Below are positions 13,963 through 61,367 of a DNA stretch of 64,000 nucleotides, one piece after another (within the stretch, counting starts at the first letter, position 1; each line of letters opens with the position of its first letter). The translations under genes and the position numbers were made by a program. Under the pieces are notes generated by a model that saw only the letters and a list, made by a program, of their open reading frames with translations, was not told the DNA's origin and searched no databases. This DNA comes from Gemmatimonadota bacterium. Its GTDB lineage: Bacteria; Gemmatimonadota; Gemmatimonadetes; Longimicrobiales; RSA9. The stretch lies in contig JBBDRO010000103.1 in assembly GCA_040905425.1 (NCBI GenBank), positions 13,959-77,958 of the forward strand, given 5' to 3'.

Positions 13963-14126
13963 CGATGTGTCGCAGAAGTCACGTTGCATTCGGAACCGGC
14001 TGCATCCCAGCCAGCGTCGTTGCTCGTCGTCGGCATAGCTACGGCTATGCTCTCCTCCTCGCGCCTAGCTGGCCGGGCGCATCCGGCCCCTCGGTGCGAC
14101 ACGGGACTTCTGCGACACATCACTAG
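13959..14126. repeat. 168-bp element bounded by 25-bp inverted repeats (2 mismatches), filling the gap between convergent genes
   Basis: The left arm ctagcgatgtgtcgcagaagtcacg (13959-13983) is the reverse complement of the right arm cgggacttctgcgacacatcactag (14102-14126), with 23/25 matches. An inner 7-bp hairpin gcatagc-tacg-gctatgc lies at 14033-14050. The left arm contains the GNAT stop codon. Confidence 0.75.
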
Positions 14127-16018: not shown

Positions 16019-16145
16019 AGGCGTGCTGCCGCCGTCCGTGGCGGTCGTAGCTGAGTGCGTTCGCCGGGGAGAAAAAGCGAAGATTGTAAAAGATACGCCA
16101 CGGCGCGGGCGCGCCACAAGAGGAATGGCTCCCATCCGGGGAGGC

Positions 16146-44185: not shown

Positions 44186-46201
44186 ATGGCTGACGCGACT
44201 GACAGATTCGGCAAGTTCGAGATCCGCGAAACGCTGGGTCAGGGCGGCTTCGGCCGCGTGTACCGTGCCTACGACACGGTGCTCCAGCGCGAGGTGGCCA
44301 TCAAGGTCTTCACGGTACACGATCCATCCATCAAGCAGCGGTTCCTGCGCGAAGCTCAGATAGCGGCCAGCCTGAGCCACCCCAACATTGTCGCGATATT
44401 TGATCTCGGCGAGCATGACGGCGACCCGTTCATCGTACAGGAATATCTGGCGGGTGAGGATCTGGAGACGATCATCCGCCGACGTGATGCAATCAGTCTG
44501 CTCACGAAGCTAAACTACCTAATCGGTATCGCCGACGGCATTGCCTTCGCCCACCGGCACGGCGTCATTCACCGTGACATCAAGCCGCAAAACGTGCGGA
44601 TCCTGACGGACGGCTCGGTACGGGTGCTCGATTTCGGGATCGCGAAGCGCGCTGTCGAGGACGCGACCGCACTGACGCAGCCGGGGTCCAGCGTCGGTAC
44701 TGCCGGTTACATGGCCCCCGAGCAGCTGCGCGGGGAACAGATCGATCACCGCGTCGACATCTTTTCCTTCGGCGCACTCGCGTTCCGGCTGCTCACACTC
44801 AGAAGGGCGTTCGAGGGCGATTCGCTGGCGAGCACGCTGTTCAAGATCGTACACGAGGAGGCAGTCTGGCCCTCTGGCGTACGTGAGACCTACCCACCAG
44901 ACCTCACCGAATGCATTGACCGCTGCCTCGCCAAGAAGGCGGAAGATCGGCCCAGCAGCTGCAAAGAAATCGTCGCCGCCTTGCGTGACGTTAAGCGGTC
45001 GGTCGGCTCGGGCGCTGAGGCCGCTGCCATGGTCACCGGCCAGGCTGCGGGCGCGGATCCAGATCAGCAAGCCACCCGGCTCGCGCCGGCCAGAGCTGCC
45101 GCCTATATCCCACCTACTGCACCGTTCAACCCACCGGCGGCAGTCGGCCCGCGGCAGCCCCGGCAGGCGGCATGGTGGAACGCAGCAGTAGGAAAGCGGT
45201 CTGGGGCCGCCGCGGCGGCGTTTATAATCATCGCGACCGCGGCGATGGCTTCACAATCGCTCTCCGGCCGCGCCGCGATCACCAATCCGGACGCGGCTGT
45301 GACCGACGCCACCGACTCGGCCGACGGCGTCGCTGCGCCCGGTCCCAGCGATTCTGCGGACCTCGGCGGTTCGGCGGGCGCACCGGCCGCGGCCACTGAT
45401 GCGTCCGCCGAAGAGCCCGACAACGTACCGAACCAGCCAACCGCGCCTACCCGTGATACCGCCGCGCCGGACCCGGCCGAGCAGCCCACCAACGAGAGAT
45501 CTGCCGCGTTTGCACTCCTCGTTGACGTCGCCAGCCTCGACGGTGGTCTGCAGAAGGGTCTGGCAGCCGCGCTTCGTGGTGACGATCGCATCGATCTGAC
45601 CGCCACGGGCAGTTCTGCCGACCTAGTTATCAGCCATCAGGGCGCTGGCTCGATGCTCCAGGTCAGGGGCAGCGACGGCACTCTGCGCGGAGCTGTCAGC
45701 AGCGCGGACCCGGTGCGCGCGGCCGAGTCGCTCGCCGGCACGATTCGACACGAACTCGGCGTTATGGGGTTGATGCGCCTGCAGAACCCTGCGCAATCGT
45801 TTGCCGTTACCATCGCCCTCGTGGGCGGCCGCCGCACGTTCAGGGTGGGTGATGCCATCGAATTCACGGTCCGCACGCAGCGGCCGGGCTATCTTACCCT
45901 GGTCGATATCGGTCCCACCGGACAGGTCTTCGTGCTGTATCCGAATCCCGATATGCGGTTGGGTGAGCTGCCGGCGGCGAGCGATATCCGTGTTCCGAGC
46001 GGCGCGCATCCGGGCTGGGTGGTCGCACCGCCGGTAGGCCGCGGTGCCGTGCGGGCGATCGTGACATCCAGCCCGCTGTTTACCGAGGGCAGTCAGCCGG
46101 GTAGCGCGGCTGCGGCTGCCCACATACACGAGCAGCTCGCCGCGAGCGCCGGGAGCAGTTGGGCAACGGCACTCGTGACGTACAGCATGACTGACCGCTG
46201 A
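44186..46201 (+). CDS. transmembrane Ser/Thr protein kinase with an extracytoplasmic DUF4384-like domain
   Basis: Intact Hanks motifs GQGGFGRVY, VAIKVF, REAQIAASLSHPNIV, HRDIKPQN, DFGIAK, GTAGYMAPEQ. TM segment AAAAAFIIIATAAMA, then a low-complexity Ala/Asp/Pro linker. C-terminal FRVGDAIEFTVRTQRPGYLTLVDIGPTGQVFVLYPN...GRGAVRAIVTS. Confidence 0.85.
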   Translation: MADATDRFGKFEIRETLGQGGFGRVYRAYDTVLQREVAIKVFTVHDPSIKQRFLREAQIAASLSHPNIVAIFDLGEHDGDPFIVQEYLAGEDLETIIRRRDAISLLTKLNYLIGIADGIAFAHRHGVIHRDIKPQNVRILTDGSVRVLDFGIAKRAVEDATALTQPGSSVGTAGYMAPEQLRGEQIDHRVDIFSFGALAFRLLTLRRAFEGDSLASTLFKIVHEEAVWPSGVRETYPPDLTECIDRCLAKKAEDRPSSCKEIVAALRDVKRSVGSGAEAAAMVTGQAAGADPDQQATRLAPARAAAYIPPTAPFNPPAAVGPRQPRQAAWWNAAVGKRSGAAAAAFIIIATAAMASQSLSGRAAITNPDAAVTDATDSADGVAAPGPSDSADLGGSAGAPAAATDASAEEPDNVPNQPTAPTRDTAAPDPAEQPTNERSAAFALLVDVASLDGGLQKGLAAALRGDDRIDLTATGSSADLVISHQGAGSMLQVRGSDGTLRGAVSSADPVRAAESLAGTIRHELGVMGLMRLQNPAQSFAVTIALVGGRRTFRVGDAIEFTVRTQRPGYLTLVDIGPTGQVFVLYPNPDMRLGELPAASDIRVPSGAHPGWVVAPPVGRGAVRAIVTSSPLFTEGSQPGSAAAAAHIHEQLAASAGSSWATALVTYSMTDR

Positions 46202-46243: not shown

Positions 46244-49171
46244 ATGAAAAAACTCACATTGTCGTTGCTGTGCGTGGGAGCGCTGGCGCTGGGCGCTGTC
46301 GCAACACCGCTGGCGGCTCAGGCTCAGTCAGGACTCGAGATCACGATCGAGGAGCCCACTGACTGGCAGGAGGAAGGCCCGGGCCGCCGCGGTATTGTGG
46401 TCCAACCGAGATCCTCCATTCGCGTGAGTGGCGTCGCACGGCACCCATCCGGCATCAGCGAGCTGCTGCTCGACGGCAACCGCGCCTCCATTGCGCCGCA
46501 GCCCGATGGCACGGTCCGGTTTCTCGGCTACGTGCTCGTGCGGGAGAAGATGACGCACGCGGAAATCACGGCCTTGACGCCGTCCGGAGAGAGGGCGACG
46601 GCGCGGTATTCGATCTCGCCGACGGCGCCGCCGGCGCCGAGGGCTGAGTCGCCGGAAGAGGCCTGGAACGCCGCGGGGAGTGATTTCCGTGGCAAGAGGT
46701 GGGCGGTCGTCATCGGCATCAGCGAATACCGGGACCCCGGCGTTCAGGGACTGAAGTATGCCGACCGCGATGCCAAAGCCGTCTACGACTTTCTCCGGTC
46801 TGATTTGGCCGGTATGGGTGGCTTCGCGCCGGAAAACATCCAGCTTCTGCTGAATGAGGACGCGACCTATCAGAACATGCGCGTTGCATTATTCGATTTT
46901 CTGAAGAATGCCACGGAAGAGGATGTAGTCTACATCTACTATGCGGGCCATGGTGCGCCCGATCCGGATCGTCTCGAGAACCTGTATTTGCTGCCATATG
47001 ACGCCAACTCGAGGCAGCTCGGCGGCACAGGATTCCCGATGGAGGACATGAATCGAGCTCTCCGCAACGTCGCAGCTAAGCACAAGATATTGATCACGGA
47101 CGCTTGCCACAGCGGTGGCATTACTGCAGAGGGGACACGCTCGCTCGCGGTCAACAGAATCAACGAGGTCTTCCTCGAGCAGATGAGCACGAGCACCGGT
47201 GTACAGGTCATGTTCACGGCGAGCGCCAGCAATCAGGAGTCGCTCGAGGACGAACAGTGGGGTGGCGGTCATGGCGTGTTCACCCACTACCTGCTCGAGG
47301 GTCTGAAGGGCAGCGCAGATGAGGACGGCGATCACATCGTCAGCATCGGCGAGGCCATGGATTACACGAAATCGCAGGTCACGCGCGAGACGAGGCAGCG
47401 GCAGGTGCCGCAGATCAGTTCGACGGCCTACGACTATCGATTTCCCGTCGCATTGGTGCTGCCCGGTGCCGAGGTGCCGGACATACCAATCGATGAGATC
47501 CGGAAGGCGAATGCGCTCAGCAACATCATGACAAGCGCGTACGAGTCCGCATGGGTGCCGCCCGACTCAATTCTCACTGTTGCAGGGGGTACAGACACCG
47601 TCGCGATCCATCTGGCCAACGACCGCACCGACAGGTTACCGCCGGAACTGGTCGAGTTTAGCAGTAGCAATACCTCGGTCGTGACGGTCGACGACGAAGG
47701 CGTTATCACGGGTCAAAACGGCGGTCTAGCCCAGATCCGTGCGCAGGGGCTCAATCGCAGTGTGACAGTTTCCGTGAGAGTTCTCCCCAGGCCGGAGCAG
47801 GTCAGTTTCTCGCCGGCTGCCGATGAGATCCAGCTCGTGGTCGGTGAGCCGCTGAAGATTAGTACCGATCTGCTGCTGGAAGGCGACAAATGGATGCGCG
47901 GCGTTCCGCCGAAGCTCTCCGCACCGGACCCGAACGTCCTGCGCTCCGACGGCGGCGGCCAGTTCACCGGCGAGCGTGTCGGCACGACCACGATCCAGGC
48001 CGATATCGGCGGCGTGACCAAAGAATGGCGGGTTGAAGTCATTGCACCGCAGGTCGCGATAAAGGGCCCGCCTATGGCACTACCCGTCGGTGATTCACTT
48101 CGCCTCACCGCGTCCCGCACCCGGCCGGATGGATCGGTGCTCGGCGACGCAGCCAACGTGATCTGGCGCAGCAGTGACACGACAAAGGCTGTGATGCGGG
48201 ACGACATCCTGCACACGCGCGGCATCGGCAAGGTCACATTGAACGCATTCCTGGGCGACTCGGAGGACAGTGTCACTGTTTTCATCCTGGGTGACCTGCT
48301 ACTCGGCGTAAGGGGCCGGATGGGTGAAACAATCCTCTCCGTCTCCATGCACAGCGGCGAGGCCGTCCCGCTACTGCCGGACACCCTCAAAGCCTCGGAG
48401 CCGGCACTGTCACCGGACGGCAGTCGCATTGCCTTCGTCGTCGACAACAGGATCCACATTGCCGACACGGATGGCCAGAATGTGCGGCGGCTGACCCCTG
48501 ACATGGAAGGCGTGCTGGGATTCCGCGCATCCCGGTACGAAGAGCATACACCGGTGTGGTCGAACGATGGGGCGCGGGTCGTCTACGTGTCGAACGCGCC
48601 GGGCAATTACCAGATCCTCTCGATTGCGCCCGACGGCGGCGACGTCCGGCGTCTGACAGAAAGCAATTCGCAGGAGCGTGACGTGGCCACGTCGCGGGAA
48701 GCTCCGCGGATCGCGTTCGAGCGCATGGTCTCCGCCGATGACACGGACATCGTCGTTGCGCTGTCGGACGGCACACAGGCGGTTCAGTTCACCAGCAATG
48801 TGCCCGCGGCCATGGTCAAGTTCAGTGAGCACAAGCCGCAGTTCGTCATCGGTACGCCGTTCCTCATTTTCGCCCGTCGCAGCACCGGCCGTGACGGCGA
48901 GGCGCTGGCGCTGATGGACATTTCGAACGGCAAGGCGGGGGGGGAGCTGGTGCCGGCGATCCGCGACCATGTGATCCTCTACGCGGTGTCTCCGGACGGC
49001 CGCTGGATCGCATATCACCAGCGTGCGCTGTGGGGCCGCAAGAACAGCAGTCTCACGCTGATCGACATTGAAGGTAAGCCTGTGAAGAACCTGCATATCG
49101 GCGACGGCGTCGAGATTACCCATGTCGCGTGGGGTGCCTCGCCTCTCATCAGCAGCAGGGAGGACCAGTGA
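46244..49171 (+). CDS. secreted caspase-family (peptidase C14) protein with Ig-like Big_2 repeats and a TolB-like PD40 beta-propeller
   Basis: Signal peptide MKKLTLSLLCVGALALGAVATPLAAQA. Caspase His/Cys dyad YYAGHGAPD ... LITDACHSGGI. Three Big_2-like units (SSSNTSVVTVDDEGVITGQNGGLAQIRAQ; GERVGTTTIQADIGGV; WRSSDTTKAVM...GIGKVTLNAF). PD40 repeats LSPDGSRIAFV, PVWSNDGARVVYVS, YAVSPDGRWIAY. Confidence 0.85.
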   Translation: MKKLTLSLLCVGALALGAVATPLAAQAQSGLEITIEEPTDWQEEGPGRRGIVVQPRSSIRVSGVARHPSGISELLLDGNRASIAPQPDGTVRFLGYVLVREKMTHAEITALTPSGERATARYSISPTAPPAPRAESPEEAWNAAGSDFRGKRWAVVIGISEYRDPGVQGLKYADRDAKAVYDFLRSDLAGMGGFAPENIQLLLNEDATYQNMRVALFDFLKNATEEDVVYIYYAGHGAPDPDRLENLYLLPYDANSRQLGGTGFPMEDMNRALRNVAAKHKILITDACHSGGITAEGTRSLAVNRINEVFLEQMSTSTGVQVMFTASASNQESLEDEQWGGGHGVFTHYLLEGLKGSADEDGDHIVSIGEAMDYTKSQVTRETRQRQVPQISSTAYDYRFPVALVLPGAEVPDIPIDEIRKANALSNIMTSAYESAWVPPDSILTVAGGTDTVAIHLANDRTDRLPPELVEFSSSNTSVVTVDDEGVITGQNGGLAQIRAQGLNRSVTVSVRVLPRPEQVSFSPAADEIQLVVGEPLKISTDLLLEGDKWMRGVPPKLSAPDPNVLRSDGGGQFTGERVGTTTIQADIGGVTKEWRVEVIAPQVAIKGPPMALPVGDSLRLTASRTRPDGSVLGDAANVIWRSSDTTKAVMRDDILHTRGIGKVTLNAFLGDSEDSVTVFILGDLLLGVRGRMGETILSVSMHSGEAVPLLPDTLKASEPALSPDGSRIAFVVDNRIHIADTDGQNVRRLTPDMEGVLGFRASRYEEHTPVWSNDGARVVYVSNAPGNYQILSIAPDGGDVRRLTESNSQERDVATSREAPRIAFERMVSADDTDIVVALSDGTQAVQFTSNVPAAMVKFSEHKPQFVIGTPFLIFARRSTGRDGEALALMDISNGKAGGELVPAIRDHVILYAVSPDGRWIAYHQRALWGRKNSSLTLIDIEGKPVKNLHIGDGVEITHVAWGASPLISSREDQ

Positions 49172-50133
49172 TGCATCGCGCAGTTGTGATTGTTGCCGTG
49201 GTCGCTGCCGGCACCTTGACCGTGCCGGCCGAGGCGCAGTTTTCATCGGATATTCCCGGTGTTCCGCGTGCCTCCGTGCCGTTCCGTGGCAATCACCAGA
49301 ACCGTACGGAGTGGACGTTTGCTGGCTACAAGATCCCCGGTGCGGCAGACGTCGGCGATACGACGGCACTCGGCGTACGCGTGACCTTTGGCCGCAGCTA
49401 CCGAATCAGGAACGTGTTCGAGCTCGGTTTTGACATCTCGATCATCGATGGCCTCCTTGAACGGCCGCCGGAGGATACGTTACCCGGCGCCCCACCCGGG
49501 CCGGGCAGTTACATCCGCGGGTCCGGCTTCTACGGGCTACGCATTGGCGGCAAGTGGAGACCATTTTCCGCGCTCGACCTGGACGGCTATGGCTGGGAAG
49601 GCGCTATCGGCGCTGGGGTCCAGCCTTCACTTCGGCCGTTGATCGGTGCCGAGAGCTATGACGACAGCACGCGCTTCGGGGGCCAGTTCTCCGGTGAGGC
49701 GGAGCCCGGTCTGCGGGGCAGCGACCCGTTCGGCAGGATCCATATGGCCACCTTCTTATCTGGCATGGCGAGCTACAGGTCGCAGCGTATCCTGGCTGAT
49801 GTTGCGCTCGTCGCCGAAGCCGTCCGTGAGTCGGACGAAGCGGATGGACCGTCGCCGCTCGTGAAATTTGACGGTGTCTCGCCGCGCGGAGGTGTGATGT
49901 ACCGGCTCACACCTAGCCTGGCGCTCGGCGCGAGCTACTGGGGCAATGGCGCCCCGCCGTGGCGGGACCAGATCTCCGTGGGCGTTCCGGGCGCGGCGAA
50001 GGGAGAACACTACGGCTTTATAATGACGCTCGGTTCCCGGCCTGAGAGTGGCACCGATTTCATGGTGTCAACGCCGACCGGCGACTGGGGTCAGTCCGTG
50101 CGGCTCTACATACGGGGTCGCTCGACGCGCTGA
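49171..50133 (+). CDS. hypothetical secreted beta-rich protein (possible outer-membrane barrel)
   Basis: ATG 49171 overlaps the caspase stop (TGATG) and is preceded by GGGAGGA. Signal peptide VVIVAVVAAGTLTVPAEAQ. Alternating hydrophobic beta-strand-like segments, but no canonical C-terminal Phe. Confidence 0.55.
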   Translation: MHRAVVIVAVVAAGTLTVPAEAQFSSDIPGVPRASVPFRGNHQNRTEWTFAGYKIPGAADVGDTTALGVRVTFGRSYRIRNVFELGFDISIIDGLLERPPEDTLPGAPPGPGSYIRGSGFYGLRIGGKWRPFSALDLDGYGWEGAIGAGVQPSLRPLIGAESYDDSTRFGGQFSGEAEPGLRGSDPFGRIHMATFLSGMASYRSQRILADVALVAEAVRESDEADGPSPLVKFDGVSPRGGVMYRLTPSLALGASYWGNGAPPWRDQISVGVPGAAKGEHYGFIMTLGSRPESGTDFMVSTPTGDWGQSVRLYIRGRSTR

Positions 50134-50576
50134 GGCGTATGCCGGCGCGGCAGACCCCCGCCGCGAGGGCAGGCATGGTGAACAGTAGTGGATCGCCGCG
50201 AGTACTCGTACAAGCCACGCTGCCTGCCCGGCGGAGGCCGCTTCACCTTCGTCGCGGGAAGGGGCGTCGATACCTGGATGGCGCTTGTCCCGGCCGTGCA
50301 CAGCAAGCTGGAGATGCACGACTGGCGGGAAGTGGGAGGGCGGCTCGCTGCCGTTCTAGCGCAGTCCATCCCAGGGACGCTCGCCGCTCTCGGCCGCCGA
50401 GAGCATTTGCGTAAGCAGGATTGCCACCTCGACCCGTCGCATGGTAAGGTTCAGCTGCTGCTGGATGACGCGGCGGATGGGCAGTGCCTCCTGCTCGGGA
50501 GATACGCTGCATCGGCTGCGGTCAGGTCGGCACACGGTGTTGCAACGCCCGCCCCAGCCGCCCATAATCGACAGCC

Positions 50577-51470
50577 ATGAAGGAGCCCCAGCACCTCACC
50601 ACCCTTTTTGCCGACGTCAGCGGCAGCACCCGCCTCTTCGAGCAGCGCGGTGACCACGAAGCCCGCCGCATCATCGCCGCCGTCCTCGAGGCGCTGACGG
50701 AAGTGGTGCAGGGCTACAGCGGGCGCGTGGTTAAGACCATCGGGGACGAAGTGATGTGCACCTTCCCCGGCCCCACCCAGGGTCTGCTGGCCGCCTGCGA
50801 CATGCAGCAGCGCGTGGCGCGCGAGCCGGATTTCGCCCGGGACGACATCGGCATCCGGGTAGGTTTGCATCACGGCGCCACGCTCGTCGAGGATGGGGAT
50901 ATCTATGGCGACTCCGTGAACACGGCGGCCCGCATGGCCGCCCTGGCCAAGCGCGAGCAGATCATCACCACCACGGCCACCCTGGAAGGCGTCACGTCCG
51001 GTGTACATCTGAGCGCCCGCGCCCTAGGCCAGGTGCGCGTCCGCGGCAAGCAGCTCCCCGTGGAGGTGGTCGACATCATCTGGCAGGAAGACACATCGGA
51101 GGTCACAACGGTCCAGCAGGTGGTGCGGGTGGGTGGCGAGCCTGCGGATCTCCAGCTGCGTCTCCGCCACAGGGACACGGAGATTATCTTCACGCAGGAC
51201 TCGGAGCCCCTCTCCATAGGCCGGGACGCCGGGAATTCATTGACAGTCCCCACGGAATTGGCCAGCCGGAACCACGCCGTGTTGGAATGCAGGGGAGCCT
51301 ACTTCGCGCTGGTGGACCGCAGCACCAACGCCACCTTTGTGCGCTTCGGGGACGACGAAGAGCTCCGGGTGCATCGGGAGGAGATCCGGCTCCGTGGGTC
51401 GGGAACCATCAGCCTAGGACAGGTCGCGAGAAGCAACCCGGCGGATTTGGTATATTTTGAGTGCGCATAG
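50577..51470 (+). CDS. class III adenylate/guanylate cyclase fused to a C-terminal FHA domain
   Basis: Cyclase motifs: LFADVSGSTRLFE, VKTIGDEVMCTF, GLHHGATLVEDGDIYGDSVNTAARM. FHA: LSIGRDAGNSLTVPTELASRNHAVLE...LVDRSTNATFV. Confidence 0.85.
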   Translation: MKEPQHLTTLFADVSGSTRLFEQRGDHEARRIIAAVLEALTEVVQGYSGRVVKTIGDEVMCTFPGPTQGLLAACDMQQRVAREPDFARDDIGIRVGLHHGATLVEDGDIYGDSVNTAARMAALAKREQIITTTATLEGVTSGVHLSARALGQVRVRGKQLPVEVVDIIWQEDTSEVTTVQQVVRVGGEPADLQLRLRHRDTEIIFTQDSEPLSIGRDAGNSLTVPTELASRNHAVLECRGAYFALVDRSTNATFVRFGDDEELRVHREEIRLRGSGTISLGQVARSNPADLVYFECA

Positions 51471-51808
51471 CGAGGAACGGCGCCACCCGACCGCAGGTCA
51501 CCCGGTTTCCGCGGCCTGTGTCTGGCGCCTGTTGCCGGGGCAGGGCTCGTCGGCTGTGACAACGGGTTGTTCGTAGCACCCGCGAACCAGCCAGTCGTCA
51601 GGGTGGATGGCAGCGGTATCGTACGCGCAACCGGTGTGGGCGCGGTGGAGATCATCGTGCCAGGCCCGCCGAAGGGGGAACGATAGCGGCCATTCCGGTG
51701 GCCACCGTGGAGACTTTTTCGCGTAACGGACATAGCAGCGGGAACTGGCGTCCGGAAGGCGTGGAGGTACTTCTAAGTCTAAGGACCGCTTCGGCTTGGA
51801 CGTGGATC

Positions 51809-51843
51809 GAGCCCGGGGGCGCGGCAGTGCCGCCCCCGGGCTC
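51809..51843. terminator. GC-rich stem-loop (13-bp perfect stem), 49 nt downstream of the minus-strand operon
   Basis: gagcccgggggcg-cggcagtgc-cgcccccgggctc. It is located between the convergent cyclase gene and the oxidoreductase gene. Confidence 0.55.
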
Positions 51844-51891
51844 GAAAACAACAGGCGGTCCTGCTGAAGGTGACCGATACGTGACGAGTTG

Positions 51892-54243
51892 CTAGTCGAT
51901 GACTTCCACCACCACTGGACCCGACGCCCTGGCCATACACGCCAGTCGGCAGGCGCCCGGCTCCAGCCCCTTCCTCTTGAGGGTCTTGAGCTCCTTTTCG
52001 GCGGGCTCGCTCAGGTGCTCGGCGCCCTCCAGAATGCGAATGGCATCGCAGCCGCACATGCCGATCCAGCATTCGTAGTCGATGTCCACCTCATTCTCGT
52101 CGGCCCATTCGAGCAACGTCTGGTCCTCGGCCAGAGGCCCTGCCAGTTCCTGTCCCTGAAAGGTGACGTGTGGACCGCTGGCCACTGGCGCCGCCACGGC
52201 CGCGTGGCTCTGCTGCTGGACCGCGGCGGCCGGCGGTGGCTCGAGCTTGGCTGCCGGCGGAGGGGGCGGTGAGGAAGTGGGGGCTACTGGCGGCTCCAAT
52301 GCGGGCGGCGCCACTGCTGGCATCGAAGTGGTCTTCTCGGGAAGGTCCTCACGTAGCCGCACCTCCAGCTGCTGACCGCCGATGCGGAAGACATCCCGGT
52401 GCCCGAGCTGCCGCTCCCCCTCGATCTTCAGGTAGGTGCCGTTTCGGCTTCCGAAGTCGTGAAGCTGAATTTCTCCGTCCTCGACCGAGAGGGAGAAATG
52501 GAATCGGGAGAGGGTGTGGTCGTCGTTGTCCAGGAGCACGTCGGGGTCTGACTTGCCGCCTGATCGTCCGAAGACGGTGGTGTCCTTCAATAGATACACG
52601 GCCACCTGTCGCCCGCGCGCGTCATAGTGGACGAGCTCGGGCGGCGCTCCGCGCACCTGGCGGGAGACCACGAGGATCTGCTGTCCGGCCCGGATCAGGT
52701 CGCTATGGCGAACGCTCACGGCACGATCGGGGAGCACCTTCTGGTAGGTACCTGCCCGGCTGCCGTCGTCCCGGAGGAAGTAGCCGCTGTCCCTCCGGGT
52801 GAGGGAGGCGTGGGCCTCCGAGAGCAGCGTGTCGTGTGGAAAGGCCAGGTCCGTACCTGTGCGCCCCAATGTGGTCATGCCACGGGGGTTCAGCCGAAAC
52901 TCCTCGGCTTCAACGCCGGCGGGCGTCAGCAGAACCAGGTATGCGCCCTCCGCGGCAGCGGCTCCCGGCTCCGGAGTTACGTCCGCCTCCGCCGCGGCGT
53001 CCTCCTCGTCTCCCCGCAGGCCTAGGACACCGCTTACCCGGCCGTCCGAGGTAGTGTCGCCGGCGAGGGGCTCCGCGTCGCGAATCACCACATTCACCTC
53101 GGCGCGGCCCTCGAGGCGCTGGTTGATGACCTCCGCCACGAACACTCCGTCGCGCAGACCGCTCTTGATGTTGCCCCGGTGCTTGACCTGGCGGAAGGTG
53201 TCGGGCGACCCGGCGAAATCGTCCGTCTCCAGGTAAGACTGGCTCAGCAGGTCTCCGATCACGTAGACGTTCGGCTGCTGCGTCTCCAGCAGTGGCGTCA
53301 CCGCCATGGTCTTCTTTCCCTTGGTGCCACCCGCCACCATGTCGACGCCTATGGTCGAGAGGAGGGCCTCGGGAATGTCCTCGCCGATGCAAGCGATACA
53401 CTGTGTCTTTGCGAACTCCAGGTGAAGCGTTTCCGGCGGCCGACCTGCGGGCGTCTTCCGGTCCACCCGTAGCGACAACACCTCCGTGCGGTCGGGAGTC
53501 GTAACAACGGCTACGGGCTCGCTCTCGGGGAAGTGCCGGATGTTGCCGTTGCCGATGTAAGCTTCGAAGAACTGCTCGGCGAGTGCCTTGGAGACCCGCG
53601 GCATCTTGGTGCCACGGTACGCCCAGTAGACCGGGCACTCGTCACCCGCGCCCACCTTTGCCCTCGAGATGGCCAGGACCGCCTCGGCGGCCGACGTGCC
53701 GCCGCCAACCACCAGCACCGGGCCCTTGGCATAACGATCCGCCTCATCGAGCCGATAGGCAATCCCGTCGGTGTTGCCGGGGATGTCGAACCGCCGGGGG
53801 ACTCCCCGTCCCAGCGCCACCACCACGTGCCGGGCTCGGAAGGTCACCTGTTCGCTCGCCTTGTGGTCCCACGCCACCACGTTCCACAGGTCATCGGCAC
53901 GCTCCATGGCGGTTAGTTCCACGCCGGTCCGAAAGGGTACGCCGAACGCACCGTAAAGCGCCTTCCAGGAACTGCACATCTCATCCTTGTCAATGGGTCC
54001 GAACTGGAGCGCTGCTATCATCTTGCCACCGGCCGGAAACCGCATGCGGTCCCCACCGCCGAAACTGGGGAGGATTAGCTTGTCAGACGGATAGTCCCGG
54101 ATTCGCTTCAGGATGTCATCGAAATCGATGACCAGAACCTCGAGCCGCAATTCCCTGGCGCGGAAAGCCGCGGCGGTGCCTGCGGGTCCGCCGCCGATCA
54201 CCAGGACGTCCAGTATCTCGGTGCCGCCGTTGATGTTGCTCAT
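51892..54243 (-). CDS. FAD/NAD(P)-binding oxidoreductase - FHA - FHA - 2Fe-2S ferredoxin-like fusion protein
   Basis: Dinucleotide motifs VLVIGGGPAGTAAAF, VLVVGGGTSAAEA, NVYVIGDL. FHA1: TTLGRTGTDLAFPHDTLLSEAHASL...SRAGTY. FHA2: TVFGRSGG...LSRFHFSLSVEDGEIQLHDFGSRNGTY. Then a Pro/Ala linker. C-terminal Cys cluster YECWIGMCGCDAIRI...GACRLACMA. Confidence 0.8.
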   Translation of the reverse strand: MSNINGGTEILDVLVIGGGPAGTAAAFRARELRLEVLVIDFDDILKRIRDYPSDKLILPSFGGGDRMRFPAGGKMIAALQFGPIDKDEMCSSWKALYGAFGVPFRTGVELTAMERADDLWNVVAWDHKASEQVTFRARHVVVALGRGVPRRFDIPGNTDGIAYRLDEADRYAKGPVLVVGGGTSAAEAVLAISRAKVGAGDECPVYWAYRGTKMPRVSKALAEQFFEAYIGNGNIRHFPESEPVAVVTTPDRTEVLSLRVDRKTPAGRPPETLHLEFAKTQCIACIGEDIPEALLSTIGVDMVAGGTKGKKTMAVTPLLETQQPNVYVIGDLLSQSYLETDDFAGSPDTFRQVKHRGNIKSGLRDGVFVAEVINQRLEGRAEVNVVIRDAEPLAGDTTSDGRVSGVLGLRGDEEDAAAEADVTPEPGAAAAEGAYLVLLTPAGVEAEEFRLNPRGMTTLGRTGTDLAFPHDTLLSEAHASLTRRDSGYFLRDDGSRAGTYQKVLPDRAVSVRHSDLIRAGQQILVVSRQVRGAPPELVHYDARGRQVAVYLLKDTTVFGRSGGKSDPDVLLDNDDHTLSRFHFSLSVEDGEIQLHDFGSRNGTYLKIEGERQLGHRDVFRIGGQQLEVRLREDLPEKTTSMPAVAPPALEPPVAPTSSPPPPPAAKLEPPPAAAVQQQSHAAVAAPVASGPHVTFQGQELAGPLAEDQTLLEWADENEVDIDYECWIGMCGCDAIRILEGAEHLSEPAEKELKTLKRKGLEPGACRLACMARASGPVVVEVID

Positions 54244-55214
54244 TGCTGGTGCAGTCTGAACTCGAGGTGCGGACCCAGTAGAAAACTGGCGCCCGGCGTA
54301 AGGGCCGCAGTTTCAATGCGGCGGTCGCCTATAAACGTGCCGTTGCGGGCACCCAGGTCCACCAGCTGAACGCCGTGCGCGCCCACGCGTACGATCGCGT
54401 GTTTGCGGGACAGCCACATGTCGGGATCCTCGATGCGGATATCGGCGTCAGAGCCCCGGCCGATGACGTTGTCACCCGGTGCGAGCGGAAACTGGAGAGG
54501 TCCGCCCGTGGGCAACAACACCACCAGTTCGTAGGCGGGCACGGCAGGCGCGACCCGGGTGGCGTCCTCACCACCGGGGGGCGCTGGCTTGGGCGCTCGG
54601 TGATCCACCGGCGGCGCAGGCGTCTTGCCGAGGTCGGGGAGCACGCCAAACCCGGCCATGTCCACGACAGTGTGCTGATTCCCGAGCGGAGCAGCGGGGG
54701 ATGGCTGCGCGGCCGCATCCGGCTCCTCCGGGCGGTTAGCGCCGCCCGCTGAGCCATTGCCCTCCGCCGGATCTTCCACACCCGGCGCAGGCGGCCCGAG
54801 ATCCGGCAGCGCCCCGAAGCCCATCATGTCCACCACCGTGTGCTCCGCGTCGGCTAACGCCTCGGGCGGCGAGGTGTCCGGTGGCGGAGAATCGGGCGGC
54901 CGGCGTACCATGCTGCGACTGAACACGAACTCCTGTCCGGCCACCTCGATGACATGCATCCGCTCCAGCGCCGCGCTGCTGCGGAGCGGCTGCCCGTCCA
55001 CCTGAGCGCTTCCACCTGCGGCCTCCTCCATCACGAAGCCCCCCTCCACGTGCCGGATGCGTGCGTGCACGGCGGCCAGGTCCGCGTCCTGTCCCACCGC
55101 TGGCCTGCCCGCCCCATCCACACCGAGGGCGGTGTTCCCAGCCAGTTCGAAGGTCGATCCAGCCAGCGCTCCTGTACGGCAGACCAGGCGTGCTGTGGGC
55201 GTCAGTGAAGTCAT
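54240..55214 (-). CDS. tandem FHA-domain protein
   Basis: The C-terminal FHA is canonical (NVIGRGSDADIRIEDPDMWLSRKHAIVRV...LGARNGTFI). The N-terminal FHA-like domain is degenerate (AAVHARIRHVEGGFVMEE). A Pro/Ala-rich linker carries a near-duplicated 'HTVVDM.GFG.LPDLG..PAP' segment. The stop overlaps the next start (ATGA). Confidence 0.8.
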   Translation of the reverse strand: MTSLTPTARLVCRTGALAGSTFELAGNTALGVDGAGRPAVGQDADLAAVHARIRHVEGGFVMEEAAGGSAQVDGQPLRSSAALERMHVIEVAGQEFVFSRSMVRRPPDSPPPDTSPPEALADAEHTVVDMMGFGALPDLGPPAPGVEDPAEGNGSAGGANRPEEPDAAAQPSPAAPLGNQHTVVDMAGFGVLPDLGKTPAPPVDHRAPKPAPPGGEDATRVAPAVPAYELVVLLPTGGPLQFPLAPGDNVIGRGSDADIRIEDPDMWLSRKHAIVRVGAHGVQLVDLGARNGTFIGDRRIETAALTPGASFLLGPHLEFRLHQQ

Positions 55215-55227
55215 GGCTACCTGGGGC

Positions 55228-56793
55228 TCAGCGGGACAGGGTGGACCAGTGCGACTTGTCCGGATGGAACTGATGACAGGACGTGCAGCTGGCGGGCGCA
55301 GTCCTGCTGCCGTGACACGAGCGGCAGCTCTCGATGGTGGGGAGATTCACGACCTCCGCCCGGTCCTGAGCAGCCGTTGCGTCCTCCCCCGACAAAAGCA
55401 GCTCGCGCGTGGGAATTACGTCGTGGCAGTCCATGCAGCGGGCGTGCACAACGTGCGCCCGGTGATCGAATTCCGCGCGCGCCAGACCGCCGTGGGCCGG
55501 TTGTTGCACGCGCCTGATGGTGGCGCGCTCCACCACGTGGCACTGGACGCACGGCTCGATGATGGCGCTGATGACGGCCTCGTATGCCGCTACGTCCATC
55601 GTCCCGGTAGCCACCCCGTCGGCCTCGTCGGCGGGGCCCACTCCGAAACGTGTGGCGTCCAGCGGCGCGTAGGGATCCTCCAGGCGGGCCTCCACGGCGG
55701 CCAGCAACTCCGACAGTTCGGCGATCTCGCGCTGCACCGCCGGCGAGGGATCGCCCCGCAGGCCCTCGATCTGCCTCGCCAGGGTGGCGATTGCCTCCCG
55801 GTGCAGCGCGCGGACCTGATCGGGCGGCACCTCCGCCGAGGTGTCCAGGAGGTCAGCCAGCTCAGCGCCCGGGTAGAGGTCGCCGCGCAACTTCCGGAGG
55901 TTGTGGAGGATCCACGGGTCGGCGTGGTAGACCGGCCGCTTCACCACGGAACCACCCAGATCGGTGAACTCACCGGCGTTCCAGAAGTATGCCCACTGGC
56001 TCCCGGGCTCACCGGCGCTGCGGATGTCACCCAACGTGGCAACGCCAGGGCCGCTGCCGGAGGCCACCCGGGCGGGCTCCGTGGCGTCGCTCCGAGAGAG
56101 ATGGCAGGCATCACAGTGCCGGTCGAAGGCCAGGGGCTGAAAGCCCTTCCCGTCCGCCTCAGGCGTGTGGCAGCTCAGGCACGCCGCCTCGGGCTCCACC
56201 AGTTCGCTTTCCGCCATCACCTCTCGCACGTGCTGCACGTGGGCGAATTTCAGATTGGCCACGCCCGCGTTGTCCTCCACGGCAAAATCGAATTCCGGGT
56301 GGTCCTTTTCAAAGGAATTCACCTCGTGGCAGGATACGCACCGGGCATCGGCCACTTCCTGCAGGGAGGCCTCTCTGCCCTGGTGCTCACGGTGACAGGT
56401 GCCGCAAGCCACCTCGTGGACATCGGCAGCCGAACGGTCCGCCTCCCCGGAGCGGTACATATAGTGGCGCGCGAACGTGTAGATCCCGAGCTCGCCGCCG
56501 GACTGCTGATGACAGCTCAGGCATTTGGCGTCGGCCGTGCCTTGAAGCGGCGTGTGGCAAGCGGCGCAGTCCCCGTCGAAGATAGCGTGACTGTCCGTGA
56601 GCGGCGCGCCGGCAATGGCCGTCCCCCGGCCCAGGAAAGCGCTGGCGAGCAGGAGCACGGCCAGGACGAGGCCAGCCAGCCCTCCGCATGCAAAGAGACG
56701 GCTGCGGCTCGTGAGCCGCGTGTACCGGTCCGCCACCGGGAGTCGGTGTGGCGAGAAGAATCCCTTCTCGAAGCGACGATCTTCCGAGCCCAC
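55228..56793 (-). CDS. membrane-anchored decaheme c-type cytochrome
   Basis: Ten CxxCH motifs read in the translation: CAACH, CLSCH, CGTCH, CVSCH, CLSCH, CDACH, then CVQCH, CMDCH, CRSCH, CTSCH. N-terminal TM/signal anchor LAGLVLAVLLLASAFL. GTG start 15 nt after the upstream stop. Confidence 0.85.
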   Translation of the reverse strand: MGSEDRRFEKGFFSPHRLPVADRYTRLTSRSRLFACGGLAGLVLAVLLLASAFLGRGTAIAGAPLTDSHAIFDGDCAACHTPLQGTADAKCLSCHQQSGGELGIYTFARHYMYRSGEADRSAADVHEVACGTCHREHQGREASLQEVADARCVSCHEVNSFEKDHPEFDFAVEDNAGVANLKFAHVQHVREVMAESELVEPEAACLSCHTPEADGKGFQPLAFDRHCDACHLSRSDATEPARVASGSGPGVATLGDIRSAGEPGSQWAYFWNAGEFTDLGGSVVKRPVYHADPWILHNLRKLRGDLYPGAELADLLDTSAEVPPDQVRALHREAIATLARQIEGLRGDPSPAVQREIAELSELLAAVEARLEDPYAPLDATRFGVGPADEADGVATGTMDVAAYEAVISAIIEPCVQCHVVERATIRRVQQPAHGGLARAEFDHRAHVVHARCMDCHDVIPTRELLLSGEDATAAQDRAEVVNLPTIESCRSCHGSRTAPASCTSCHQFHPDKSHWSTLSR

Positions 56794-56808
56794 GCGGTGC
56801 CTGCCAGG

Positions 56809-57651
56809 CTAGAAGTAGAGAATGAAGAACACGTGCAGCACCACCAACGCCAGCAGCGCCACAGCCGCGGGCAGGTGGAGCACGAGCCAGCCGCGCAGCA
56901 CGCGCTGCAGCGTATAGTGGACGTCCATCTCGTGCTTGGTGACGCGCAGCCCCTGCACCTCGTCCACCACCGCCGCGTCTTCCGCCTCCAGGGTGCACTT
57001 GAGCAGCTCGACTTCCCGTGTGCCGCGCAGGTGGGCGGCGGGGCTCCGGAACAGTTCACGATAGGTGACCCGCGGCCCCGCCATCACCGGCGCCACGCGC
57101 TTCTGGAACCAGCTTCGCACGCGTGGGTCTGATTCCGCCACCTTGGCCTCCGCGCGGGCGCGCAACTCGTCGACCAGACCGGGGATCCGCTCCAGGTGGA
57201 CCTCGAACGAGGAGGTGGTGTTCAGCACCTGCGGAACTGCCCGCTGCAGAAAGAGGCCCACCGCACCCGTCAGGACCACCCAGAGGCTCAGCAGCCAGAG
57301 CCCCGCCACCATTCCGCCCGAGGGCAGCCCGAAACCGGTGTGGTAGAGGAAGAGCAGGAAAAACAGGGTGCCCCCCCACAGGTGTACCTGCAAGTACGTC
57401 CGCGTGGGGCCGAGGCGCCGCACGGCGGGCATGGCGCGGCGGGCCGAGTAGAGCATTACTGCCAGGAGCGACAGCGCCGCCGCCACGCCGAGCCCGAGCC
57501 CGAGCGGGGAACTGGGTGCCACACCACCGGTGGCCATGCCTACCATGAATGCCACTGTAGCAGCAACGGCACCCAGGGTACTGAGCAGGGGAACAGGCCC
57601 GGAACGCACCACGCCTCCGGCACCGCGCAGGCGCTGAACCAGAGCCGTCAT
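56809..57651 (-). CDS. integral membrane protein with two His-N13-His pairs (candidate di-heme b transmembrane electron carrier)
   Basis: ATG 57651 overlaps the upstream stop (ATGA). About 5 TM helices. H90/H104 lie in YLQVHLWGGTLFFLLFLYHTG, and H260/H274 in WLVLHLPAAVALLALVVLHVFF. A soluble segment of about 115 aa sits between TM4 and TM5. The function is inference only. Confidence 0.6.
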   Translation of the reverse strand: MTALVQRLRGAGGVVRSGPVPLLSTLGAVAATVAFMVGMATGGVAPSSPLGLGLGVAAALSLLAVMLYSARRAMPAVRRLGPTRTYLQVHLWGGTLFFLLFLYHTGFGLPSGGMVAGLWLLSLWVVLTGAVGLFLQRAVPQVLNTTSSFEVHLERIPGLVDELRARAEAKVAESDPRVRSWFQKRVAPVMAGPRVTYRELFRSPAAHLRGTREVELLKCTLEAEDAAVVDEVQGLRVTKHEMDVHYTLQRVLRGWLVLHLPAAVALLALVVLHVFFILYF

Positions 57652-59246
57652 ACCGGCATCTCCGCTGCACGCTTCGCCTGCCGCAGTAGGTCGAACTCTT
57701 CGGTGCCGGAAACGCGGTGCGCGGCGCTGTGCGGGCAGCTGGCCACGCAGGCCGGTCCCTCCGGCGCCTGGTAGCAAAGATCGCACTTGCTGGCCACCGC
57801 CCGGGGCTGCCCACGCAAATAGCTGGGCACCGCATCGGGGCCCCACGAGGTGTCCAGGTCGTGCATGACGATGGAATCATACGGGCAGTTCTGCTCGCAG
57901 GCGCCGCAACCGATGCAGATGGCGGGATCGATTTCCACCACCGCACCCACGTTCAGCCGGCGGATGGCGCCCGTGGGGCACCCCACCAGGCACGTGGGAT
58001 CCTGACAGTGATAGCAGGAGCGGGCCACCATGAAGCCGTCGTAGACCTCACCTTCGCGCACGAACCGAGGGCGGCCGCCATGGGTGCTGGCGCACCCGCG
58101 CACGCAATCGTCGCAGCGGGTGCAGGCCTCGAGGTCAATGACCAGCACACTGTTCGCCTGCGCAATGCCCTTGGCGAGCGTGAAGTCGAGCAGATCCGAA
58201 CGGGCCAGGTCAGAGCGGGTGGCACCCATGATCTTGATCCGCTCCATGGCAGTGCCCCACAGGCGTTGCTCCAGTTCCGGCTGCGCGGCCAGGGCGTCCA
58301 GGAAGGCGTCCCGGCCGATGCGGACCAGCTCCGAGTTGCCTACTGAGGAGGCGCTCACCTGCCACACGCCGGAGCCGTCCACCATGAGTTCGGACTCCCC
58401 GAGCGAATCACCCTTGCTGAGGTACGATACGGCTACCTCGGCGGCGCCCAGCGCCTGTGAGAGCCGCAGGCAACCGGAGCGTACCAGGACGAAGTGCTCC
58501 GTGGGCTCGCCCTCCCGGACGGCCACCTCCCCCGGCTCGCACGACACCAGTTCGGCCGCGGCCACCAGCCGCTCAAGCGTTTCCGGCGTGCAGCCGTGCA
58601 GCAGCGGGGTGCCGGCCAGGTGCTGTCGCAGCATGCGGGCCTTGTAGAGCTCGTCCAGCCGTATCCGGAGCGCGCGTGATTTACGGCGCAGCTTGCGGAG
58701 CGCGGGCAGGCGGATCTGCAGTAGCGTACAGGCGCTCGCCGTGCGGGCGGTGGCGGATTGCGGCCAACCGTTCATGGCGCCGATCTCGCCAAACAGTTCG
58801 CCAGGTCCCAAGCGCATGCACTCGTCCGCAGCCACGTCGAAGTCCATGGACGCCAGCATCACCGTTCCGCCGCTATGGCTCTCCCGATCGGCTTCGTAGG
58901 GGGCTTCACCCGCCACCGCGCCTGCGCCGCTTCCGAAGATGGGCTGAACCGCGCTCTCCGGGCGCGCCAGGAAGACCTCCACTTCGCCGCTCACCACCAG
59001 GAATGCCAGGTCCAGGTAGCTGCCCTGCTCGAAGATCACCGCCCCCGCGTTCCACTCCGCCAGCGATAGGTCGGGGCTCAACTCCTTCAGGAGGTCGTCA
59101 TCGAATTCCTGCAAGATGCCGATCTTTTTGAGCTGCGCGGGGGTGGGCAGGCTGGAGATGCTACGGATCCCTGTGTGCTCGCCGAAGGAGGACCAGCGGT
59201 CGCCGTGCTGGCGACTCATCATGACCAGGGTCCCTGATGCTTCCAT
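57648..59246 (-). CDS. two cyclic-nucleotide-binding domains fused to a 4x[4Fe-4S] DmsB/NrfC-like ferredoxin
   Basis: cNMP-binding 1: GAVIFEQGSYLDLAFLVVSGEVEV...GELFGEIGAMNGWPQSATARTA. cNMP-binding 2: GEVAVREGEPTEHFVLVRSGCLRL...GDSLGESELM. Four Cys clusters: CTRCDDCVRGC, CYHCQDPTCLVGCP, CIGCGACEQNCP, CDLCYQAPEGPACVASCP. No twin-arginine or signal sequence. Confidence 0.85.
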   Translation of the reverse strand: MEASGTLVMMSRQHGDRWSSFGEHTGIRSISSLPTPAQLKKIGILQEFDDDLLKELSPDLSLAEWNAGAVIFEQGSYLDLAFLVVSGEVEVFLARPESAVQPIFGSGAGAVAGEAPYEADRESHSGGTVMLASMDFDVAADECMRLGPGELFGEIGAMNGWPQSATARTASACTLLQIRLPALRKLRRKSRALRIRLDELYKARMLRQHLAGTPLLHGCTPETLERLVAAAELVSCEPGEVAVREGEPTEHFVLVRSGCLRLSQALGAAEVAVSYLSKGDSLGESELMVDGSGVWQVSASSVGNSELVRIGRDAFLDALAAQPELEQRLWGTAMERIKIMGATRSDLARSDLLDFTLAKGIAQANSVLVIDLEACTRCDDCVRGCASTHGGRPRFVREGEVYDGFMVARSCYHCQDPTCLVGCPTGAIRRLNVGAVVEIDPAICIGCGACEQNCPYDSIVMHDLDTSWGPDAVPSYLRGQPRAVASKCDLCYQAPEGPACVASCPHSAAHRVSGTEEFDLLRQAKRAAEMPV

Positions 59247-59258
59247 GGGCGTTCCGAC

Positions 59259-61334: not shown

Positions 61335-61367
61335 GCGGGCACTACAGACTCCGGGGAAGCACCACGA

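Follow-up and report, generated by a model that had tools for sequence, protein, structure and literature searches.

The gene at 50577-51470 encodes an apparently functional enzyme for cAMP synthesis, to which an FHA domain that reads phosphothreonine is fused. By its sequence, the protein is one ordinary member of a large and conserved family of cyclase-FHA proteins of ~300 aa, and it probably owes its place beside an FHA-decorated cytochrome/ferredoxin operon to chance gene order in this genome, with no conserved circuit involved. Taking all of the evidence together, we think it likely that the protein is a soluble, IIIc-like adenylate cyclase that uses its C-terminal FHA domain as a regulatory input and is unlinked to the neighbouring operon. 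Throughout, the window is the whole stretch of DNA that was analysed (64,000 nucleotides, or 64 kb).

The cyclase-FHA protein

The gene and the parts of its product are laid out as follows.

50577-51470, + strand: cyclase-FHA gene, an open reading frame with an ATG start encoding 297 aa plus stop, with two Pfam domains
50586-51131, + strand: class III (IIIc-like) cyclase catalytic domain, residues ~4-185, placed by Pfam, phmmer, Foldseek and alignment
51081-51116, + strand: linker segment W169-Q180 (WQEDTSEVTTVQ), with conserved W169 and T177
51213-51419, + strand: FHA domain, Pfam residues 213-281, also matched by PDB sequence search and Foldseek

The initial annotation described a cyclase core with intact motifs followed by a canonical FHA domain, and this description holds. 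All of the motifs that it quoted were found, namely FADVSGST (residues 11-18), IGDEVM (55-60), GDSVNTAARM (111-120), GR (215-216) and SRNHA (230-234), and Pfam agrees for both domains. Guanylate_cyc (PF00211) matches residues 4-159 with an E-value of 4.1e-17 (62.8 bits, against a cut-off of 21.9), and FHA (PF00498) matches with an E-value of 1.3e-8 (35.5 bits, against a cut-off of 20.7). Full-length homologues reach E-values down to 1e-120, far past chance, and no NCBIfam model scored above its cut-off for the protein. An identical 297-aa protein is annotated in the Gemmatimonadota MAG GCA_040879335.1, and the public annotation of the gene is an adenylate/guanylate cyclase domain protein. Our literature search returned no paper on a cyclase-FHA enzyme and no enzymatic or binding study of any family member. 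Horizontal transfer of the gene was also considered, and composition lends it no support: GC3 is 0.84, the same as in neighbouring genes (0.77-0.87).

We assessed the functional residues in an alignment of 83 relatives that spans both clades of the family (see below). The metal residues D13 and D57 are invariant and match the corresponding aspartates of Ma1120, a mycobacterial class IIIc cyclase; the adenine-specifying residues K53 and D108 are likewise invariant and align with the Lys and Asp of the same enzyme. The transition-state residue N115 is present in 83/83 relatives and R119 in 81/83, and K158 is also kept in 81/83. In the FHA domain, the phosphothreonine-binding set (G215, R216, S230, R231, H233 and N251) is invariant in the 83 relatives, and the catalytic and FHA residues are invariant again in an alignment of 36 close relatives. 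Residues for metal binding, ATP selection, transition-state stabilization and phosphothreonine recognition are thus all present and, judged from this conservation, under strong purifying selection. In class III cyclases, a Lys/Asp pair goes with ATP, and a Glu and Cys/Ser-type pair with GTP; the PDB contains a "KDA to EGY" specificity-swap mutant of Ma1120. Because K53 and D108 form the ATP-type pair, adenylate specificity is predicted, and the earlier reading of the cyclase motifs as intact is borne out at the specificity-determining positions, which are present on alignment and invariant across the family.

The best matches of the catalytic domain are two mycobacterial class IIIc cyclases, Ma1120 (4wp8, 4wpa) and Rv1900c/LipJ (1ybt), which are likewise short and soluble. 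By phmmer, the E-values are 4.5e-15 for Ma1120 (4wp8), 1.3e-14 for 3mr7 and 1.6e-9 for Rv1900c, and the best fold match found by Foldseek is Ma1120 (4wpa; TM 0.84, rmsd 2.9 Å). Identity to the mycobacterial class IIIc enzymes is only ~25%, and there are clear differences. Neither Ma1120 nor Rv1900c has an FHA domain, Rv1900c having an N-terminal lipase-like domain instead, and Ma1120 reads GRNVAMAARV, with Ala at the Asn position, where the cyclase-FHA protein reads GDSVNTAARM. A bacterial class III adenylate cyclase that does carry an FHA domain is Cya1 of Synechocystis sp. PCC 6803, in which the FHA domain is N-terminal, so that the order is reversed.

For the FHA domain, FHA-1 of Rv1747 is both the best PDB sequence match (E 0.008) and the best fold match (6ccd, TM 0.81), and it has the same Gly-Arg, Ser-Arg-x-His and Asn set (6cah, 6ccd). 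Rv1747 itself is an ABC transporter regulated by the kinase PknF and is not a cyclase. GarA is among the weak PDB matches (E 0.53). The AlphaFold model of the protein is confident over residues 1-126, has low confidence over residues 127-189 and reaches a pLDDT of ~90 or higher over residues 190-297. The linker W169-Q180 falls inside the low-confidence stretch, and its two marked residues are conserved across both clades (W169 in 83/83 relatives, T177 in 82/83), which makes it a candidate phospho-acceptor or FHA-docking site.

Family members and their gene neighbours

The family has 3986 matches at E<=1e-5. At E<=1e-30 it comprises 902 representatives of 50%-identity clusters, nearly all of them ~300 aa long and colinear. 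The nearest relatives are 57-64% identical over 100% of the length, and the close relatives are mostly from Xanthomonadales.

Two clades differ in what lies beside the gene. Among distant-clade loci with adequate flanks, a kinase gene occurs within 3.5 kb in 12/23, and five of these 12 have co-directional strings of cyclase-FHA, PP2C and kinase genes. No kinase or PP2C gene was found within 3.5 kb in the close clade (0/12 loci). There, a co-directional gene for a fused E1_dh/Transket_pyr/Transketolase_C protein lies less than 1 kb upstream in 11/16 loci, and the same fused E1 gene is found 35-38 bp upstream in two deeper-branching members. The window protein nests within the E1-neighbour clade in a neighbour-joining tree that carries no support values. 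Neither of the conserved arrangements (a fused E1 gene adjacent, or kinase and PP2C genes adjacent) is present beside the window gene, and the 64-kb window holds no E1 homologue or remnant.

These neighbourhoods bear on the proposal in the initial annotation that the FHA domain reads a kinase signal. The proposal gains indirectly from the kinase neighbours in the distant clade but finds nothing of the kind in the protein's own clade. That the FHA domain reads kinase signals is plausible on these grounds, and the kinase link is carried over from the sister clade, because the window protein sits in the E1-neighbour clade, which has no kinase neighbours.

The locus and the neighbouring redox operon

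Three further features are needed to describe the locus.

50540-50568, + strand: sigma-70-like promoter match TTGCAA-17-CATAAT, from a consensus scan
51807-51845, no strand assigned: perfect inverted repeat, G+C-rich, with 15-nt arms and a 9-nt loop, lying between the convergent genes, from a repeat search
57648-59246, - strand: cNMP-like ferredoxin gene, with Pfam cNMP_binding (E 1.7e-29) and a HycB-like four-cluster ferredoxin domain

The cyclase gene stands by itself, set off by spacers of 443 and 421 bp from the two flanking modules, each of which is conserved independently. Downstream, it is convergent with the minus-strand gene 51892-54243, whose product carries Pyr_redox_2, two FHA domains and Fer2 in Pfam; 421 bp separate the stop codons of the pair, and the convergent arrangement with the redox operon was correctly called at the outset. 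The inverted repeat between the two genes is probably a terminator hairpin that lacks a T tract, which is why a terminator scan requiring a T run called nothing at the locus. The promoter match ends 8 nt before the ATG, inside the 443-bp gap 3' of the upstream gene; it is weak (one site against 0.3 expected), and the sigma-70 consensus may not be the promoter type of the host. An Rfam scan of the whole window returned zero RNA families.

Upstream, the nearest kinase gene (44186-46201) is 4.4 kb away and the nearest PP2C gene (41884-42873) is 7.7 kb away, with a small FHA protein (42898-43335) encoded between them. Between this cluster and the cyclase lies a conserved module of two genes, a caspase/PD40 gene and a gene for a 320-aa protein, which recur as a pair in four other loci and once more in a place listed without DNA. 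We considered whether the upstream caspase cluster might end with the cyclase gene and ruled this out, as homologues of the 320-aa protein are always paired with caspase/PD40 genes and never then followed by a cyclase-FHA gene.

The ferredoxin gene lies 6.2 kb and four genes from the cyclase, and its product is the sole cNMP_binding protein found in the window. The cNMP domains that the initial annotation placed on this poly-ferredoxin are indeed there: the N-terminal domains align with PKA regulatory subunits. Like the CRP and PKA regulatory-subunit domains, they belong to Pfam cNMP_binding and have the conserved Gly-Glu, and the Thr-Ala of the phosphate-binding cassette is also kept. They differ from those receptors in being fused to a HycB-like four-cluster ferredoxin and in the replacement of the arginine that holds the cyclic phosphate. 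At this position in domain A, which we take to correspond to Arg209 of PKA RI-alpha, the ferredoxin family (n=77) has Gln in 65 sequences, Val in 6, His in 3, Met in 2 and Arg in none; the window ferredoxin has Gln163. In domain B, too, no Arg is fixed. Hydrogen bonding of a cyclic phosphate by glutamine is still conceivable, but binding of cAMP by the ferredoxin appears unlikely, and the ligand of the operon's cNMP-like domains is probably not cAMP, because these domains have lost the cyclic-phosphate arginine.

Co-occurrence was compared at the level of loci, in 10-kb neighbourhoods. Operon loci were screened by tblastn, for which the full protein and the isolated cyclase domain served as queries, and with an HMM of the cyclase domain only. 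No cyclase-FHA gene was found within 10 kb in the 80 best operon loci (0/80), which come from at least eight phyla, and tblastn with either query returned nothing in them. The sole class III cyclase match in the 80 loci is a weak one (E 2e-4) located 7-10 kb away. Matches of a full-length family HMM in operon loci were rejected, as every one of them was due to an FHA domain in a protein of the operon itself. Conversely, the redox operon was found in none of the 84 other cyclase-FHA loci, one of which holds an unrelated cNMP-domain protein. The taxonomic ranges of the best matches to the cyclase-FHA protein and to the operon scarcely overlap, and Xanthomonadales is absent from the 80 best operon loci. 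In other genomes, the 3' end of the operon has its own PP2C and kinase genes and no cyclase; these genes are co-directional with the operon in six loci, and in eight more the operon faces a convergent kinase gene.

Proposed mechanism and alternatives

By analogy with established class III cyclases, two chains would associate head to tail, creating two active sites that convert ATP to cAMP. A homodimer is expected, because every catalytic residue sits in one chain. The FHA residues and the family neighbourhoods suggest that the FHA domain, by binding a phosphothreonine, sets either the activity of the enzyme or its partnering. A Ser/Thr kinase would place this phosphothreonine and a PP2C phosphatase would remove it, and it may be carried by a partner protein or by the protein's own conserved linker, at T177. 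The cAMP would act on receptors other than any pinpointed in the window.

The initial annotation went further and proposed a local circuit, in which the FHA domain of the cyclase reads a kinase signal and the cAMP then made is bound by the ferredoxin at its cNMP domains, tuning the redox operon. The short distance between the genes, the strong cNMP_binding match on the only such protein found in the window, and the retained parts of the phosphate-binding cassette all favor it. It fails, however, where it can be compared across genomes. Co-occurrence of cyclase and operon, set beforehand as the test of the circuit, is absent at the locus level in both directions; the phosphate-binding Arg is missing family-wide in domain A and unfixed in domain B; and the main order of close cyclase relatives is absent among the best operon loci. 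A local cAMP loop with the neighbouring operon is not supported, and we regard it as very improbable. A different way of joining the neighbours would be through a shared kinase hub, in which the PP2C, small FHA protein and kinase of the upstream cluster control the FHA-bearing redox proteins and, alongside them, the FHA-cyclase; the neighbouring genes would then belong together in function with no need for cAMP to act on the ferredoxin. In line with this, the operon elsewhere adjoins or faces kinase genes, distant-clade cyclase-FHA genes also adjoin PP2C and kinase genes, and the window's only nearby kinase and PP2C genes are in the upstream cluster, convergent to the operon. We nevertheless judge such a hub unlikely. 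The window kinase and PP2C are 28-45% identical to operon-linked and cyclase-linked counterparts alike, which allows no assignment to either; the intervening caspase/320-aa module is independently conserved; the kinase carries DUF4384, which elsewhere is paired with the caspase module; and the three elements occur together in no other locus.

A separate possibility concerns the family as a whole. OdhI and GarA are FHA proteins that bind OdhA/Kgd, an E1 component, and inhibit it; they are switched off when the FHA domain engages a phosphothreonine within the same protein. Like them, the cyclase-FHA protein has an FHA domain plus a conserved Thr-containing segment outside it, and its family shows a genomic tie to an E1-type thiamine-dependent dehydrogenase. 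The family might then be a GarA/OdhI-like phospho-switch wired to a second-messenger output. Its FHA domain would bind either the protein's own phosphorylated T177 or a 2-oxoacid dehydrogenase of the fused E1 alpha/beta type, whose gene would lie at another place in this genome, separated from the gene studied here, and cAMP would report on 2-oxoacid catabolism and on the state of the Ser/Thr kinase. The fused E1 neighbours in the close clade and in the two deeper branches, the nesting of the window protein among them, the near-invariance of T177 and the weak match to GarA are consistent with this. GarA and OdhI differ, however, in that they have no enzymatic domain, carry the Thr motif N-terminally and have OdhA/Kgd as partner where a fused E1 alpha/beta protein would serve here. 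Moreover, an E1 homologue is missing from the window, common descent within one order may account for part of the adjacency, and the likeness of the linker to the ETTS motif of GarA is superficial; we hold this switch to be distinctly unlikely. There is next to no chance, in our estimate, that the cyclase domain serves as a scaffold, either devoid of catalytic activity or specific for GTP. Nothing specific speaks for it beyond the fact that some class IIIc relatives stray from the consensus, as Ma1120 does with its Ala for Asn, whereas the six canonical residues are all present and, R119 (81/83) apart, invariant in the 83 sequences, and the Lys/Asp pair is of the adenine type and not the Glu/Cys type of guanylate cyclases. 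The reading of the protein as an adenylate cyclase with an FHA input, independent of the operon, is the one that we retain.

Signalling-domain fusions of class III cyclases are common and the attractive local circuit fails testing, so that the finding as first presented matters little. The negative result shifts attention to the neighbouring operon itself, which occurs in many phyla and has an FHA, PP2C and kinase layer of its own. The cyclase-FHA family, for its part, is large, has near-invariant functional residues and has conserved partners, either a kinase and PP2C or a fused E1. It is thus a good model, and it could reveal how Ser/Thr phosphorylation becomes cAMP in bacteria.

Cyclase-FHA protein and its family

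The open reading frame under study encodes 297 residues, and translation recovered all of the motifs quoted in the initial annotation. Its third-position G+C bias (0.84) is that of a real gene, in a window of 63-77% G+C, and its composition shows no trace of recent transfer. Pfam assigns residues 4-159 to a class III cyclase domain (E 4.1e-17) and residues 213-281 to an FHA domain (E 1.3e-8), both matches being well over the curated thresholds; no NCBIfam model reaches its cut-off. A Gemmatimonadota metagenome-assembled genome (GCA_040879335.1) has an annotated protein identical to this one, which also occurs in an independent assembly made from a single sequencing run. The gene and its surroundings are laid out as follows.

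50577-51470, plus strand: cyclase-FHA gene
51081-51116, plus strand: interdomain linker, residues 169-180
51807-51845: perfect 15-nt G+C-rich inverted repeat with a 9-nt loop, between the convergent genes
51892-63991, minus strand: redox operon, also carried by loci L008-L087
57648-59246, minus strand: ferredoxin with cNMP-like domains lacking the phosphate-binding arginine (residues 152-167 and 283-301; family alignment)

The closest solved structures to the cyclase domain are Ma1120 (E 4.5e-15), Rv1900c/LipJ and a Silicibacter protein, the first two being soluble mycobacterial cyclases and all three belonging to what we take to be subclass IIIc. Also among the structure matches are PDB entries of the "KDA to EGY" Ma1120 mutant, built for a specificity switch. 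In the alignment with solved cyclases, D13 and D57 correspond to the metal-binding aspartates and K53 and D108 to the adenine-selecting lysine and aspartate, while GDSVNTAARM supplies the transition-state residues N115 and R119. These six residues are invariant in 36 close relatives, and across 83 relatives from two clades all are constant except R119, which differs in two. The phosphothreonine-contacting FHA residues (R216, S230, R231, H233 and N251) are invariant in the 83. Both sets of residues are thus intact and conserved. The AlphaFold model (mean pLDDT 77; confident at residues 1-126 and 190-297, poor at 127-189) matches the fold of Ma1120, also the best solved relative of the cyclase domain by sequence, with a TM of 0.84, and that of Rv1747 FHA-1 with a TM of 0.81. 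From these sequence and model comparisons, we conclude that the window protein is a predicted active adenylate cyclase with a predicted functional phosphothreonine reader, and the domain reading in the initial annotation was reasonable. By analogy with class III enzymes, a homodimer would convert ATP to cAMP.

A word-indexed search with the window protein returned 3986 matches. The best 120 of these are all 294-322 aa long, carry both domains and share 56-64% identity with it; their named sources are mostly Xanthomonadales (Rhodanobacteraceae, Arenimonas, Pseudomarimonas, Chiayiivirga and Rudaea). When 50%-identity representatives were searched exhaustively, 902 proteins matched at E<=1e-30, and nearly all of them are colinear and about 300 aa long. 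The window protein is therefore a member of a large family and no one-off fusion. Synechocystis Cya1 has the same two domains in the opposite order, FHA preceding cyclase. The window fusion is genuine and of an ordinary kind, a new member of a signalling-enzyme type that public annotation already recognises; our literature search found no study of a cyclase-FHA enzyme.

Redox operon and the proposed cAMP circuit

The cyclase-FHA gene and the last gene of the long minus-strand operon converge, their stop codons 421 bp apart, which confirms the arrangement first described. The inverted repeat between them is followed by no T tract on either strand, and a terminator scan made no call there. The 443-bp gap upstream of the cyclase gene holds one promoter-like match, ending 8 nt before the ATG.

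The ferredoxin combines two cNMP-like domains with a HycB-like four-cluster ferredoxin domain. We aligned 34 homologues and, with this alignment as query, retrieved 80 loci from species genomes (55 of at least 12 kb), drawn from Gemmatimonadota, Rhodothermales, Ignavibacteria/Chlorobi, Acidobacteriota, KSB1, Zixibacteria, Calditrichia, Nitrospirota and others. Both the gene content and the gene order of the operon are strikingly conserved.

Genes of the redox operon, in operon order, with the number of loci (of 80) carrying each
unk371: 26
unk518: 29
cytochrome-691 (multihaem): 32
cNMP-ferredoxin (cNMP-like/4x[4Fe-4S]): 80
unk280: 69
cytochrome-521 (multihaem): 60
FHA-324: 31
Pyr_redox_2/2xFHA/Fer2: 44

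At least eight phyla include genomes that keep this gene order. Neither Pfam nor NCBIfam matches unk280, unk518 or unk371, and a literature search found no description of the operon. In many genomes, co-directional PP2C (Ser/Thr phosphatase) and Ser/Thr kinase genes stand at its end, or a convergent kinase stands opposite.

The initial annotation had proposed that cAMP from the cyclase binds the cNMP domains of the ferredoxin, and had named a lack of phylogenetic co-occurrence with the operon as refuting it. At the locus level, that lack is what we found. None of the 80 operon loci has a cyclase-FHA gene; the one match of a cyclase-domain-only profile was weak (E 2e-4) and fell, in locus L054, within a large protein at a distance of 7-10 kb. 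The operon is absent from four other contexts of close cyclase-FHA homologues (L003, L004, L005/L006 and L007), and none of its eight genes occurs in any of 80 further cyclase-FHA loci from a metagenome scan (35-58% identity to the window protein), one of which (L156) contains an unrelated cNMP-domain protein. A conserved link between cyclase-FHA and the operon is thus absent at the locus level.

The receptor domains point the same way. Ferredoxin FGEIGAMNGWPQSATA aligns residue for residue with FGELALMYGTPRAAS of PKA regulatory subunits, so that glutamine 163 takes the place of the arginine partner of the cyclic phosphate in PKA. Among 77 family members, this position in domain A is Q in 65, V in six, H in three, M in two and arginine in none; domain A keeps Gly-Glu and Thr-Ala, and in domain B a tryptophan is conserved and no arginine is fixed. 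Across CRP, PKA, Epac and cyclic-nucleotide-gated channels, to our knowledge, no other determinant of cyclic-nucleotide binding is as general as this arginine. The better label for the ferredoxin domains is cNMP-like, and cAMP binding by them is unlikely; the family-wide loss of the arginine suggests that their ligand is neither cAMP nor cGMP. The cAMP-to-ferredoxin circuit is therefore unsupported on both counts.

Gene neighbourhoods and candidate inputs

A neighbour-joining tree without support values divides 84 cyclase-FHA sequences into two groups. In the group of the window protein, 11 of the 16 loci with enough upstream sequence have a fused alpha/beta E1 gene on the cyclase strand, within 1 kb upstream; it encodes a thiamine-dependent, 2-oxoacid dehydrogenase-like protein of about 755 aa (E1_dh, Transket_pyr and Transketolase_C). 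Two deeper-branching members (L118 and L125) have E1-to-cyclase gaps of 35-38 bp. No E2 gene was seen near the pair in loci with listed genes. An acyl-CoA dehydrogenase gene often precedes the E1 gene in E1-linked loci (L003-L007, L089-L104, L118 and L125). None of 12 loci of this group has a kinase or PP2C within 3.5 kb. In the other group, 12 of the 23 loci whose flanks are long enough have a Ser/Thr kinase within that distance, with co-directional cyclase-FHA, PP2C and kinase strings in five loci and a directly convergent kinase in eleven. The 64-kb window has no E1 homologue. Because the window protein branches early inside the E1-linked group of this tree, its gene appears to have been separated from its E1 neighbour.

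Upstream of the cyclase gene lie the following features.

40714 to about 41880, plus strand: Ser/Thr kinase, frameshifted near 41335; two separate genes in the NCBI annotation
41884-42873, plus strand: PP2C
42898-43335, plus strand: small FHA protein
44186-46201, plus strand: kinase with DUF4384
46244-49171, plus strand: caspase (C14)/PD40 protein
49171-50133, plus strand: 320-aa protein with a signal peptide and a weak TonB-barrel match

The motif ...MPEHMSPEQL of the broken kinase runs on in another frame; the gene is a pseudogene, or else the assembly is wrong at this point. In the other contigs that we inspected (L168-L172), the caspase and the 320-aa protein are again paired, along with a DUF4384 protein, either a second caspase or a kinase, and cyclase-FHA never follows the pair. 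The cyclase gene thus stands by itself, with an independently conserved module on either side. In two of these contigs (L171 and L172), two CHASE2-cyclase genes and a cNMP_binding-Zip gene flank the caspase module.

The initial annotation had a kinase acting on the cyclase through its FHA domain. This input is reasonable in view of FHA biology and the kinase and PP2C neighbours of the sister clade, by which a kinase/PP2C pair would control the window protein. The upstream kinase and PP2C may serve the cyclase, the caspase module, the redox operon or more than one of these; similarity comparisons do not separate these, so we give such sharing a modest probability.

Elsewhere in the window, two GAF proteins showed no connection to cyclase-FHA, GAF domains being able to bind cyclic nucleotides, and two long ORFs (759 and 243 aa) occupy its most G+C-rich part (0.76-0.77). 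In the latter, G+C at the first codon position (0.90-0.92) exceeds that at the third, and Pfam matches neither ORF; they may be wrongly called frames or encode low-complexity proteins.

6480-6950, plus strand: stand-alone GAF protein
10982-13989, minus strand: two long ORFs
14132-16135, minus strand: GAF-GGDEF diguanylate cyclase

Candidate partners and significance

Under kinase control of the cyclase, the linker offers a candidate acceptor. W169 is invariant, and Thr177, preceded by acidic residues, is present in 82 of 83 relatives from both clades. Speculatively, phosphorylated Thr177 could dock on the FHA domain, as the phospho-acceptor does in GarA/OdhI, the FHA regulators of E1, and the E1 protein is itself a speculative candidate FHA partner. 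What remains of value here is the uncharacterised cyclase-FHA family and, as a separate matter, the neighbouring FHA-decorated redox operon, which is widely conserved.
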